A DNA stretch of 64,000 bases from Shigella phage SF1-1: sequence record PQ571307, one strand, 5' to 3'. The first letter of the stretch is position 1. The number at the start of each line of letters is the position of its first letter. Positions 27,800 to 41,101 of the stretch are shown in pieces. The notes beneath the pieces were generated by a model that saw only the letters and a list, made by a program, of their open reading frames with translations, made no database searches and was not told the DNA's origin. Position numbers and translations under genes: made by a program.

Positions 27800-27995
27800 T
27801 TCTACCTCCTCCGATGCTTTGTGCCGTACCATCCCAAGCCATTAGAATATTTGCCAATAGTTCACGAGGCTCTTTAAACCAAACTTCCATTTCATCAAGA
27901 ATCTCGTCCGTGTCGTAAGTATAACCTGGAACACCAAGTTCACATTTCTTAATATAACTTTCTAACCAATGGTGATAATTCTTAACCCCATTCAT
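27792..27995 (-). CDS. hypothetical protein
   Basis: ORF in co-oriented array. Confidence 0.4.
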   Translation of the reverse strand: MNGVKNYHHWLESYIKKCELGVPGYTYDTDEILDEMEVWFKEPRELLANILMAWDGTAQSIGGGRNE

Positions 27996-28320
27996 ACTGT
28001 GCTACCTTTTCTTTTACCCAATCTACGCGATCTTTGTCATAATGTTGAGTGCCAAGAAAAAGACCATTGTGGAAGCTTTCAGCACCGAAAGGATAAATTG
28101 GATCTAAACCATCTTCTTCAAATAACATTTTTAATCTGTTTGATGTAGATTTCTTAGTTTCTGAATTGTAGTTTGTGGTTATAAGCCAATCTTCCAAACA
28201 ACGACACAAGCCTTGACGAGAATCCCAAGGAAAAACACAATCTCCGACAGGAGCTTGTTCCGCCCATTTCAACCAACCTTTAAAAAAGTTATACAATATG
28301 TAGTCTTCAGTGTAATACAT
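27982..28320 (-). CDS. paralog family A member (WV-K/R-D-R C-terminal motif family)
   Basis: ATG after AAGGAGGA (internal start of track ORF); shares GLC ... PF ... RVxWVKEK blocks with five other ORFs. Confidence 0.5.
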   Translation of the reverse strand: MYYTEDYILYNFFKGWLKWAEQAPVGDCVFPWDSRQGLCRCLEDWLITTNYNSETKKSTSNRLKMLFEEDGLDPIYPFGAESFHNGLFLGTQHYDKDRVDWVKEKVAQYEWG

Positions 28321-28345
28321 TATCTCCTCCTTTACGTATACAATA

Positions 28346-28364
28346 ACACCCCGAAGAACGGGGT
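28346..28364 (-). other. GC stem-loop between genes
   Basis: CACCCCG-aagaa-CGGGGTG palindrome. Confidence 0.3.
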
Positions 28365-28371
28365 GCAACTG

Positions 28372-28983
28372 TTATTTAATCTGTTTAAAAATTTCGTTTG
28401 GAACGGTACCGTTTAAAATACCTTCTACGATCTCTTGTGCAGACGTGTAAGAGAGTCCAAAAGAAGCTACGCCTAAAATTGCCTCCTTTAAAGGATCTGG
28501 CAGGGGTTCAAAATTACCTGCAACAAAGCCACCTGCACAAGCAGCACCTTCATCATCCCAGAAAACAACTGCTACGTCGTTACCATGCGAAGTTGTGCGA
28601 TGTGCAATAACTTCAACTTCGGTGCCTTCTTTAGGAACAGAATAAGAACTGTCCCAAGAATATCTTTCCAAATCAGGAACAAAAATAACCTTTTCACCTA
28701 CTGGCGGCAGTTCACAACGATAATACCAAGAATTTTTTTCGTTCATTGTTTTATTTTCCTCCACATCTTCAAAAGTAACGATCCAATCGTAGCCGTAAGA
28801 AAACGGATATTTTAGATCTAAAGAATAAGTTTGACCTAGATCGTCCTCAACAAGGACCATCCTGTCAAAGTTTGCGATGTTAGGATTATGTTTAATGACA
28901 GGGTATGTTTCCCCTACAGTAAATTGTCCCAAATGGTAAAGTTCATCTCTCCAAGTAATTTGGATATGAGTGCATTGAATCAT
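28372..28983 (-). CDS. hypothetical protein (203 aa)
   Basis: ORF in co-oriented array. Confidence 0.5.
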   Translation of the reverse strand: MIQCTHIQITWRDELYHLGQFTVGETYPVIKHNPNIANFDRMVLVEDDLGQTYSLDLKYPFSYGYDWIVTFEDVEENKTMNEKNSWYYRCELPPVGEKVIFVPDLERYSWDSSYSVPKEGTEVEVIAHRTTSHGNDVAVVFWDDEGAACAGGFVAGNFEPLPDPLKEAILGVASFGLSYTSAQEIVEGILNGTVPNEIFKQIK

Positions 28984-28987
28984 AAAA

Positions 28988-29260
28988 TCACCCCCAAGAA
29001 ATATTTATATATCTTACAATGTTTGCACTGTCTAAAGCCATGTTTGCACCACACCCACGCTCGCGCCAGTAACTAACAATACCTTCACAGATACTTTCTT
29101 GTATCTTCTTATCACTTGGCATTTCTAGTATAAGACTTGGGTTGTGGATGTTTATGTTATAATATCCTTCCTCTGCGGCTTGAGCTACCAATTTACTTAC
29201 TTTTTCAAAGTACGGGGAATTAGTGGCATCTGCCATTGTTTTTAAGGTTTGTCTATCCAT
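28988..29260 (-). CDS. hypothetical protein
   Basis: ORF in co-oriented array. Confidence 0.45.
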   Translation of the reverse strand: MDRQTLKTMADATNSPYFEKVSKLVAQAAEEGYYNINIHNPSLILEMPSDKKIQESICEGIVSYWRERGCGANMALDSANIVRYINISWG

Positions 29261-29625
29261 TATTCTGCCTCATCATAGAAGAAATCCAACTCTTGTTCCA
29301 GTTGTTTAACTCGATCCTTAACCCACTGTACACGTTTTTCATTAAACATGCAACGTTTTTCCTTACGCTCTTGCTCAAAAGATTTTGCTGTGTTAAATGG
29401 GAAAGTTGTATCTAAGCCAGCGTTTTCAAAACTGGCTAATTGCATACCATAAACAGAATATGCTAAAGAATGCTCGGCCCGAAATTCATCACTTATATAC
29501 ATACGTAGACCTCGGCATAAGCCAACATCAGCGTAACCACTTTCTCTTGGAAAGAGACGGAGGTGTTCTAACCAATTATTATAGAAATCTAAAAGAATCC
29601 TTTTACACTTCAAATCAATTGTCAT
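29260..29625 (-). CDS. paralog family A member
   Basis: Internal ATG with AAGGAGA upstream; FYNNWL ... GLC ... FPFN ... RVQWVKDR. Confidence 0.5.
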   Translation of the reverse strand: MTIDLKCKRILLDFYNNWLEHLRLFPRESGYADVGLCRGLRMYISDEFRAEHSLAYSVYGMQLASFENAGLDTTFPFNTAKSFEQERKEKRCMFNEKRVQWVKDRVKQLEQELDFFYDEAE

Positions 29626-39384: not shown

Positions 39385-39508
39385 TCACTTCTGCTTCTGC
39401 ACGTTGTGCTAGTTCTAATGTTGCACAGATCTTGTAAGGAACAGTGCTGCATTGGCTCCAACCTGGGGTGTTCTTAGTCACTAAATATACAGTAGTTCCT
39501 TTATTCAT
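39314..39508 (-). CDS. hypothetical protein
   Basis: ORF in co-oriented array. Confidence 0.35.
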   Translation of the reverse strand: MNKGTTVYLVTKNTPGWSQCSTVPYKICATLELAQRAEAEVNAMQYSYGEIIPFTLEQEGAHHV

Positions 39509-39962
39509 AACTTTCTCCTCCTAGTTCATCATACCATTTCAAAGCGTCTTTTGGAAGCATACCAAAATCTTCTTTCAGTTCTTTTTCAATCTCTTCTTGC
39601 ATTTCCATCAGCATTTTCAGTTGACGGACTTTTTTGTGCATAGCCACATTCCTTTCATTAAGGTTTGTCACTACATTATTTGCACGACTCGGTGGAAATG
39701 ACAAAGGTTTCACGGGAAGATAATCTTCGATATTATCTAGTGCGTTACGAAAATTATGATCCAAGAAACGCACATCCACACGATTGTAATCGGCAGCTAC
39801 AACAGTGAACACTTTAAACGGCACATTGGATAAAGTATGTTGCACACAGACAGTACCCATATTACCTTCAATTTTACTATTAACTTCCAGCAAACCTGTA
39901 TGAGCACTAACATAATCGTGGACACATTGCACATAAGCTGCCAGTATAGTGAATTGTCTCAT
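39501..39962 (-). CDS. hypothetical protein
   Basis: ORF in co-oriented array. Confidence 0.5.
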   Translation of the reverse strand: MRQFTILAAYVQCVHDYVSAHTGLLEVNSKIEGNMGTVCVQHTLSNVPFKVFTVVAADYNRVDVRFLDHNFRNALDNIEDYLPVKPLSFPPSRANNVVTNLNERNVAMHKKVRQLKMLMEMQEEIEKELKEDFGMLPKDALKWYDELGGESYE

Positions 39963-40207
39963 TTTCTACCTCCCCATAATGCTAACATTTTATTGAAAAT
40001 GGAAACGCGTCGTGCGCGAGATGCCATATCATAATTCATTCTTTCTGTCTCTGCAAGAAATTGATCTACTGTAATCAACGCTTCTGTCTTCTCTTTCAGA
40101 GTTTGCATATTCATCCATTCACATTCAGAGTACCAATTATCGAAATACAAACTATCAAGAAGATCCATTGCTGCTTCGTTCTGTTGTGGTGTGATCATTG
40201 CACACAA
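39959..40207 (-). CDS. hypothetical protein
   Basis: ORF in co-oriented array. Confidence 0.4.
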   Translation of the reverse strand: MCAMITPQQNEAAMDLLDSLYFDNWYSECEWMNMQTLKEKTEALITVDQFLAETERMNYDMASRARRVSIFNKMLALWGGRK

Positions 40208-40210
40208 CCT

Positions 40211-40432
40211 TTAATAGACAATTTCATATTCATCACGAAGGAAAACATACTCACCTCCTTCAACAGTATCCCCTTCTTCCCATTTCCAACCTTGCACATG
40301 GCTCATCGTTGTGAACTGCACGTAGGCATTTCTGCCATAACCAATATTTGCATCCAGTGTAACAGGGAAATCTACATGAAGCAATCCTAAGTAACCACAA
40401 TTATGCTCAATACGAATTTTACAGATCATCAC
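40211..40432 (-). CDS. paralog family B member
   Basis: KIRIEHNCGYLG ... AYVQFTTMSHVQGWKWEEGDTVEGGEYVF. Confidence 0.45.
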   Translation of the reverse strand: MMICKIRIEHNCGYLGLLHVDFPVTLDANIGYGRNAYVQFTTMSHVQGWKWEEGDTVEGGEYVFLRDEYEIVY

Positions 40433-40667
40433 TCGTCTCCTCTACAATCGTATACTCATGAGAGAAGAAACTATAATCATGACCTTCTTTCGTATCTTCC
40501 TCATCCCACCACCAGCCTTCCACTTGTATCATAGTTGAAAATCGCACATAGGCAAGCCCCTTGTCACCCAGTTTAGCATCAAGGATGAGTGGGAATGTTG
40601 CACCTTCTAATCCCTCATACCCACACGGATCTTCTGTACGAATTTTCATGCGTTTCATGCTATGCAT
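40419..40667 (-). CDS. paralog family B member
   Basis: KIRTEDPCGYEG ... AYVRFSTMIQVEGWWWDEEDTKEGHDYSFF; tandem with 40211. Confidence 0.45.
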   Translation of the reverse strand: MHSMKRMKIRTEDPCGYEGLEGATFPLILDAKLGDKGLAYVRFSTMIQVEGWWWDEEDTKEGHDYSFFSHEYTIVEETSDDL

Positions 40668-40726
40668 TCCAATCTCCTCATTAGCTGTTTGTTATGCGCG
40701 GTATGCAAACTATCATACAGACATTT

Positions 40727-41101
40727 TTATTCAATGCAAGCATTATTTGCATCTTCAATTCTGTCTTTCACCCATTGAAGACGTAACGTGTTGGTATGAC
40801 ACGCCAAGTTTATACACTCTGAAAGGTAATCCATGCAATCTGCATTGAACGGAAGATTGTAGTCCAGCCCTGCACATGTAAATTGTTTCCTCATTTCATA
40901 TTTCAAACGGTCTAACAAATGATCACGCCATCTTCTATCTTCTTCTCTGGTTGTCTCACCGACAAAATCATCTACATAATCTACCAGACAACCACATAAG
41001 CCACTCGTTGTGCGATTCATTGCAGGATAGTTGGCAATCCATGCTTTATAGAATCGAAGCAATACTACACTGCTCAACGGAACATTTTTACTCTCTTGCA
41101 T
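40727..41101 (-). CDS. paralog family A member (N-terminally extended)
   Basis: FYKAW ... GLCGCL ... LPFN ... RLQWVKDRI. Confidence 0.5.
   Translation of the reverse strand: MQESKNVPLSSVVLLRFYKAWIANYPAMNRTTSGLCGCLVDYVDDFVGETTREEDRRWRDHLLDRLKYEMRKQFTCAGLDYNLPFNADCMDYLSECINLACHTNTLRLQWVKDRIEDANNACIE

Follow-up and report, generated by a model that had tools for sequence, protein, structure and literature searches.

Six paralogues of a widespread N4 gp3-like phage protein family in Shigella phage SF1-1

The window analysed here is a 64,000-nucleotide (nt) stretch of Shigella phage SF1-1 (record PQ571307). Six small genes scattered through a 13-kb part of it, between positions 27,982 and 41,101, are almost certainly paralogues of a single phage protein family (PHROG 2510/6418), which we term N4 gp3-like. 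An original prediction, made from the letters alone, had placed open reading frames (ORFs) of this family at 27982, 29260, 32143, 32902, 36135 and 40727. All six are there; they lie on the minus strand, so these numbers mark their stop-codon ends. The predicted size of some 105–130 amino acids (aa) also holds, in that the longest ORFs encode 104–132 aa, or 104–124 aa with the ATG starts that are annotated in near-identical phages. We number the copies in order of position.

27982..28320, minus strand: copy 1, 112 aa from the ATG at 28320; orthologue of phAPEC8 gp211
29260..29625, minus strand: copy 2, 121 aa from the ATG at 29625; orthologue of phAPEC8 gp214; leave-one-out E 6e-19
32143..32463, minus strand: copy 3, 106 aa; orthologue of phAPEC8 gp219; leave-one-out E 1.3e-30
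32902..33228, minus strand: copy 4, 108 aa; orthologue of phAPEC8 gp222; leave-one-out E 4.7e-32
36135..36449, minus strand: copy 5, 104 aa; orthologue of phAPEC8 gp233; leave-one-out E 1e-23
40727..41101, minus strand: copy 6, 124 aa, with AGGAG 7 nt upstream of the ATG; leave-one-out E 2.6e-20

The evidence that these genes are related is statistical in the first place. When each copy was compared by phmmer with all 677 stop-to-stop ORFs of the window, 14 of the 15 pairs of copies matched at E-values from 1e-5 to 1e-36, while the best unrelated ORF stayed above 0.1. Copies 3 and 4, which are 50% identical, match each other at E 8.7e-36. Profiles built from any five copies recover the sixth at E-values from 6.6e-16, for copy 1, the most divergent, to 4.7e-32; the prediction would have fallen had the resemblance been insignificant, and it plainly is not. 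With a six-copy profile no seventh member turns up in the window: the next match has an E-value of 1.7. That the likeness is due to chance, or to ORFs that are not genes, we regard as practically out of the question: the weak pair, copy 1 with copy 6 (E 0.011–0.016), is all that speaks for it, whereas independent PHROG profiles match all six copies, homologues number in the thousands, the ratios of nonsynonymous to synonymous substitution (dN/dS) lie well under 1, and the AlphaFold model described below is of high confidence.

Aligned six ways with MAFFT, the copies are colinear, with identities of 22–50% to copy 4 and 24–30% to copy 1. The motif pattern originally proposed for them holds at its core and loosens elsewhere. 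G-L-C, P-F and R-x-x-W-V occur in all six, and F-Y in five (copy 1 has F-F); G-A-P occurs in three, the cysteine (Cys) ahead of H/x-x-N in four, and the exact ending K/R-D-R in three. The reading of the set as the outcome of repeated duplication and divergence is borne out by the range of identity to copy 4, by variation in copy number among close relatives, and by one copy that is a recombinant.

The family had not been recognised at the outset, although it is in fact catalogued. Each of the six copies matches PHROG 2510 (best E 4.9e-31, over profile positions ~5–110), and each likewise matches PHROG 6418; both are listed as of unknown function. Pfam, with no match at E<=1, and NCBIfam return noise at most for the six copies. 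Searches of PDB sequences gave nothing meaningful, either with the six-sequence profile or with one built from 120 sequences.

A match in the record of Enquatrovirus N4 led us to gp3 of coliphage N4 (YP_950481.1, 104 aa), which is found at E 8e-18 by the six-copy profile and at E 1e-23 by the 120-sequence profile. The motifs FxxYxxWL, GLC, PFN, CHLN and RxxW are common to gp3 and the window copies, as are the single domain of about 104 aa and a location in early or accessory regions alongside other small genes. They differ in degree of identity, only ~20–30%, and in number: N4 has one copy, whereas there are six here and up to nine in relatives.

The reach of the family is broad. When all 1.84 billion cluster representatives (clusters at 50% identity) were searched with a profile, 1,892 proteins matched at E<=1e-3, of which 958 reached E<=1e-10; a second, word-indexed search from a diverse alignment added little. 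Most homologues are 95–125 aa long, some carry two or three domains in tandem, and a few are fusions, whose partners in the four proteins scanned with Pfam and PHROG (P0160, P0180, P0178 and P0046) match nothing except PHROGs of unknown function. By tblastn, copy 4 matches 245 phage records across many genera, among them the Stephanstirmvirinae, with matches at two to eight places per genome, N4-like Schitoviridae, and phages of Rhizobium, Achromobacter, Erwinia, Pectobacterium and Pseudomonas. Also matched are coliphages and Shigella and Salmonella phages of 43–48 kb, which we take to be T1-like. The sole plasmid match is to a phage-plasmid bearing phage-type genes (Ref, Phd/Doc), and the notion that the family belongs to plasmid leading regions was dropped on account of that single match and its phage-type company. 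One fusion member, of 441 aa, lies in a lambdoid prophage downstream of the repressor gene, whose strand it shares, and immediately upstream of xis/int; a search of E. coli genomes with this gene returned only partial matches, annotated hypothetical. A further member belongs to a group of small genes that follows a replication module.

What do these proteins look like? Copy 4, the nearest to the family consensus, was chosen for modelling and is the only copy modelled directly. AlphaFold2, given an alignment of 43 sequences, produced a single domain of about 100 aa with a predicted local distance difference test (pLDDT) score of 94.6 and a predicted template modelling (pTM) score of 0.86. Its helices span residues 5–19, 34–42, 50–64, 77–85 and 93–107, around a core formed by a ladder of aromatic residues (F10, Y11, Y14, W17, F62, F73, Y80 and W98). 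The fold is thus confidently predicted to be a compact, all-alpha, five-helix domain, and one without a solved relative, in that Foldseek finds no match to the model in the PDB at E<=1e-3. Among the predicted viral structures of BFVD there are 17 fold matches at that threshold, all of them uncharacterised phage proteins from many host genera. Each window copy is a soluble protein of ~12 kDa lacking a membrane segment (19-residue Kyte-Doolittle maximum below 0.9). They are mildly acidic, with isoelectric points (pI) of 4.4–5.8; the family median is 5.5 and its 90th percentile 8.3.

Conservation was gauged in 120 diverse members with a mean column identity of 24%. Four residues are invariant in all 120: C35 at the start of helix 2, P72 and F73 in a loop, and R95 at the start of helix 5. 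L7, F10, Y11, W17, G33, L34, F62, L67, N92, W98 and V99 are conserved in at least 90%, and conserved polar positions include E57 (85%), Q61 (89%), Y80 (85%), E83 (73%), H90 (85%, with tyrosine in 7%) and N92 (92%). In the window, C35, P72, F73, R95, W98 and V99 are present in six of six copies and N92 in five, the near-invariant asparagine (Asn) being replaced by aspartate (Asp) in copy 1. Copies 1 and 5 lack the second cysteine—the latter reads L-L-H-L-N there and has a histidine (His) at position 102—and copy 2 has methionine (Met) in place of the usual His90. Copy 6 carries an insertion of ~15 residues in the loop between helices 2 and 3. Residues E57, Q61, Y80, E83 and H90 share the i/i+3/i+4 register of the core hydrophobics in their own helices. 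From this shared register E57, Q61, E83, H90 and N92 appear to face inward, and we infer that the conserved polar residues form a buried network or line a cavity. Variation and indels, meanwhile, cluster at residues 43–53, 75–79, 81–82 and 84–89.

Natural two-domain homologues give a hint of how the domains might associate. When one of these (P0038), with a linker of four residues, was modelled (pLDDT 94.9, pTM 0.82), the five-helix pattern appeared twice and the two halves were predicted to pack as one compact unit. By extension, the single-domain copies may dimerise.

The window is that of a Phapecoctavirus, a phAPEC8-like E. coli myophage. Its region 27982–41101 matches 126 phage records by megablast, nearly all of them Phapecoctavirus or other Stephanstirmvirinae, the closest being Escherichia phage Mt1B1_P17 (97% coverage, 98.2% identity). 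Profile counts vary even among such relatives: six gp3-like genes in the window, seven in Mt1B1_P17, seven in phAPEC8 (gp211, gp214, gp219, gp222, gp233, gp244 and gp245), at least eight in phiWec190 and at least nine in phiWec186. Copy 6 reveals how one difference arose. By blastn and tblastn it is a chimera: its first 11 residues are those of phAPEC8 gp245 and the remainder are those of gp244, and ~312 nt are absent from its locus relative to phAPEC8 (L007, 18610–19312). The window lacks a seventh copy, then, because unequal recombination fused two tandem, overlapping paralogues. The chimeric form also represents a cluster (P0003) of 198 members. Elsewhere, on an N4-like metagenome contig (L005, 7579–9141), four gp3-like genes stand in direct tandem right after a Gp2 homologue, an expansion independent of that in Phapecoctavirus. 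The family, in short, grows and shrinks through tandem duplication and unequal recombination.

The individual copies are nonetheless under purifying selection. Between orthologues, dN/dS by the Nei-Gojobori method is 0.02–0.5 and cannot be distinguished from that of neighbouring genes, so whole-gene ratios give no sign of an arms race. Ratios against close relatives are 0.04–0.06 for copy 1 and 0.00–0.02 for copy 5. Some copies are steadier residents than others. Each of the four relatives compared carries close orthologues of copies 3 and 4, copy 3 being 94–98% conserved across them. Copies 1, 2 and 5 are matched only distantly or not at all in the phiWec phages, which demonstrates turnover; copy 2 has no reciprocal-best orthologue in phiWec190 or phiWec186.

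The proteins are probably made early in infection, a timing that we infer from three positions. The N4 gp3 gene lies in the early region of N4, between gp2 and the RNAPII genes gp15/16; a review of N4 describes gp2 and gp15/16 as early products, transcribed by a virion RNA polymerase that is injected. The order Gp1 … Gp2 … gp3-like is retained in two N4-like metagenome contigs, one of them that with four tandem copies. The second position is that of the prophage fusion, and the third that of the phAPEC8 genes, in a block of small genes that occupies the first ~23.7 kb of the deposited genome and whose products are nearly all annotated hypothetical.

Taking these features together, we tentatively read the gp3-like proteins as binding modules, each paralogue aimed at a different host or defence target, and give this reading somewhat less than an even chance of being right. 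They would act early, in the cytoplasm and stoichiometrically, probably as dimers, on host factors. The conserved core and its polar pocket would provide a rigid, probably dimerising scaffold. Specificity would reside in the helix 2–helix 3 loop together with the first residues of helix 3, in residues near helix 4 (75–79, 81–82), in the 84–89 segment ahead of helix 5, and in other non-conserved helix positions; it is these variable parts that would match each copy to its host protein or ligand. A genome with six to nine copies would then possess a range of specificities with which to take over the host or counter its defences. An anti-defence role specifically is plausible, but the six copies match no known anti-defence or defence family in Pfam, NCBIfam or PADLOC—where the sole hit, to PifA, is noise (E 0.021, one copy)—and have no fold relative in the PDB.

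Several observations weigh against this reading. Literature searches on N4 gp3, PHROG 2510, the Phapecoctavirus paralogues and anti-defence in Stephanstirmvirinae turned up nothing on function. Whole-gene dN/dS is not raised over that of neighbouring genes; known immune antagonists often evolve faster. A scan for sigma-70 promoters showed no enrichment (65 sites against 54.9 +/- 7.8 expected). The proposed dimer derives from one AlphaFold model of a fusion, whose very short linker itself restricts the geometry. And the invariant Cys and arginine (Arg), with the conserved glutamate (Glu), glutamine (Gln), His and Asn, suggest a catalytic or ligand pocket no less than a scaffold.

The last point gives rise to the main rival, a Cys-dependent enzyme or ligand pocket, since the Cys and Arg are invariant and the conserved polar residues appear to face inward. 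In this version the gp3-like proteins are small enzymes or covalent modifiers in which Cys35, at a helix N-terminus, serves as a low-pKa nucleophile or redox centre, assisted by Arg95, His90, Glu57, Gln61 and Asn92, with the paralogues acting on different substrates. In its favour, C35, P72, F73 and R95 are fully conserved in 120 sequences despite a mean column identity of only ~24%, and H90, Q61, E57 and N92, in register with the hydrophobics, can be read as lining a conserved polar cavity. But no known enzyme resembles these proteins in sequence or fold; His90 gives way to Met in copy 2 and to tyrosine in 7% of the family, and Asn92 to Asp in copy 1; at ~100 residues, and lacking an evident site for a cofactor, the domain would be a small enzyme; and every conserved residue might instead serve in helix capping, in a buried salt bridge or in the packing of the core. 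We think an enzyme unlikely. Four further resemblances, suggested by the motifs, were dropped for want of profile or fold support: Fic/Doc, whose signature HxFx(D/E)GN(G/K)R in an all-helical Fic fold the copies do not show; papain-like and other Cys-His hydrolases, which need a Cys-His dyad on an alpha+beta fold where the model is all-alpha, and in which a variable His90 and the want of a fold match also tell against membership; HEPN, whose motif order is reversed (H-x4-R, not R-x4-6-H); and lytic transglycosylases.

Alternatively, the proteins might be oligomeric sponges that, like Acb2, Tad1, Tad2 and Sequestin, soak up immune signals derived from nucleotides, each paralogue tuned to a different signal. 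They are small, soluble and probably early, their conserved aromatics and Arg, Asn and Gln could line a pocket, the domains are predicted to pair, and a multi-copy panel would suit several ligands. We rate this as decidedly improbable. The six copies have no Pfam match at E<=1, even though the Pfam copy used includes Sequestin (PF21825), which it lists for a neighbouring gene; and the model shows no similarity to the solved sponges in the PDB. We know of no sponge family with six to nine paralogues per genome. Membership of the Acb2, Tad1, Tad2 or Sequestin families themselves was rejected on the same Pfam and PDB results. Little expectation, finally, attaches to the idea that the proteins regulate the phage's own programme, by binding nucleic acid or as cofactors of transcription or replication, and are not host-directed at all.

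Set beside known anti-defence and takeover proteins—Ocr, ArdA, Arn, Acb2, Tad1/2, AsiA and N4 gp8—the gp3-like copies are alike in being ~100 aa long, soluble and mostly helical, and in occupying early accessory regions with variable presence between related phages. In sequence and structure, on the other hand, there is no relationship, and multi-copy expansion is, to our knowledge, unusual for those families. DNA-mimic anti-restriction of the Ocr, ArdA and Arn kind was rejected on pI, the gp3-like family not being uniformly acidic as the mimics are, and on the lack of a PDB fold or Pfam match. Gp54 of Bas11, the CapRel trigger of a T1-like phage, was likewise set aside, being a 66-aa beta-barrel. 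The N-terminal core-binding (SAM-like) helical domain of tyrosine recombinases is also listed among the closest known systems.

A bolder form of the binding-module reading, which we consider doubtful, would see in the family a new structural superfamily of early phage effectors, in which a five-helix module that dimerises and bears an invariant pocket of Cys and Arg neutralises host immune proteins or small-molecule signals, deployed in large virulent phages as a recombining panel of six to nine specificities. If that were so, a modular counter-defence repertoire would have gone unnoticed even in N4. For the present the family, uncharacterised but with its anatomy defined, is an experimental lead and not a demonstrated new mechanism. 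It is large and taxonomically broad, occurring in a model phage and in many coliphages that are candidates for therapy, and is absent from Pfam and NCBIfam. Its repeated, independent expansions—to six to nine copies in Phapecoctavirus and to a tandem of four in an N4-like phage, besides two- and three-domain fusions—together with the invariant Cys and Arg make it a tractable target in the search for new host-takeover or counter-defence activities, for which N4 gp3 offers a ready genetic system. We believe the following to be new: N4 gp3 belongs to the family; the family is broad; its predicted fold is novel, with a conserved Cys/Arg anatomy; one copy is a recombinant; and the domains are predicted to pair.

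One detail of gene structure deserves mention. The reading frame of copy 1 is open back to a TTG at 28368, giving a 128-aa ORF, but a GC-rich, terminator-like hairpin with a T-rich tail (28346–28366, minus strand) lies between the end of the upstream gene (28372) and the ATG at 28320. The hairpin falls within the TTG extension, and we therefore favour the ATG start; the longer ORF is probably overlong.

A second, three-member family of proteins of ~73–82 aa shares the neighbourhood, with pairwise phmmer E-values of 1e-12 to 1e-21:

35518–35739, minus strand: member of the ~73–82 aa family
40211–40432, minus strand: member of the ~73–82 aa family
40419–40667, minus strand: member of the ~73–82 aa family

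These proteins follow the pattern KIR...GY.G...P...V.F..M..V.GW.W.E.D..EG.(D/E)Y.F, have no Pfam match, and are probably phrog_15322, which three genes of the block match. A member lies slightly downstream of gp3-like copies 5 and 6, and the same arrangement is seen in phAPEC8, Mt1B1_P17, phiWec190 and phiWec186. This recurring pairing suggests that a cassette holding both families was duplicated as a segment long ago; the smaller family was not found in the N4-like loci.

All of these genes belong to a minus-strand block that extends, by GC skew, from ~23.5 to 56 kb. The 13-kb setting described in the original prediction proved to be part of a long series of small accessory genes on the same strand. 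Besides the gp3-like copies the block encodes a GNAT protein, a phage tudor domain, several domains of unknown function (DUFs), and the following:

30034–30711, minus strand: serine recombinase/resolvase (Pfam Resolvase, E 5e-18)
50069–50611, minus strand: NADAR-domain protein (E 1.8e-35)
51159–52166, minus strand: CapR-domain protein (CapR homology domain, E 1.4e-23)
52236–53375, minus strand: AAA/STAND-like ATPase

NADAR enzymes reverse the ADP-ribosylation of DNA, and the NADAR gene might for that reason counter DarTG. As an accessory region the block is consistent with host interaction, without being specific evidence for such a role in the gp3-like family. The resolvase is labelled 'methionine ABC transporter ATP-binding protein' in several near-identical GenBank records, probably a propagated misannotation. 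Some host labels look doubtful too: records 90–98% identical to region 27982–41101 are filed as phages of Campylobacter, Acinetobacter, Klebsiella, Pseudomonas and Serratia.

Immediately upstream of copy 6, in the sense of transcription, lies a stretch of ~1.6 kb without ORFs (41102–42726). It contains no tRNA and has no Rfam match. Its transcribed strand is rich in A+C, with short CAACAA-type repeats, several inverted repeats and a strong terminator-like hairpin at 42693–42711 (minus strand). A gap free of coding sequences occupies the matching place in phAPEC8, phiWec190 and phiWec186, and the stretch may encode a non-coding RNA or act as an origin or in regulation.

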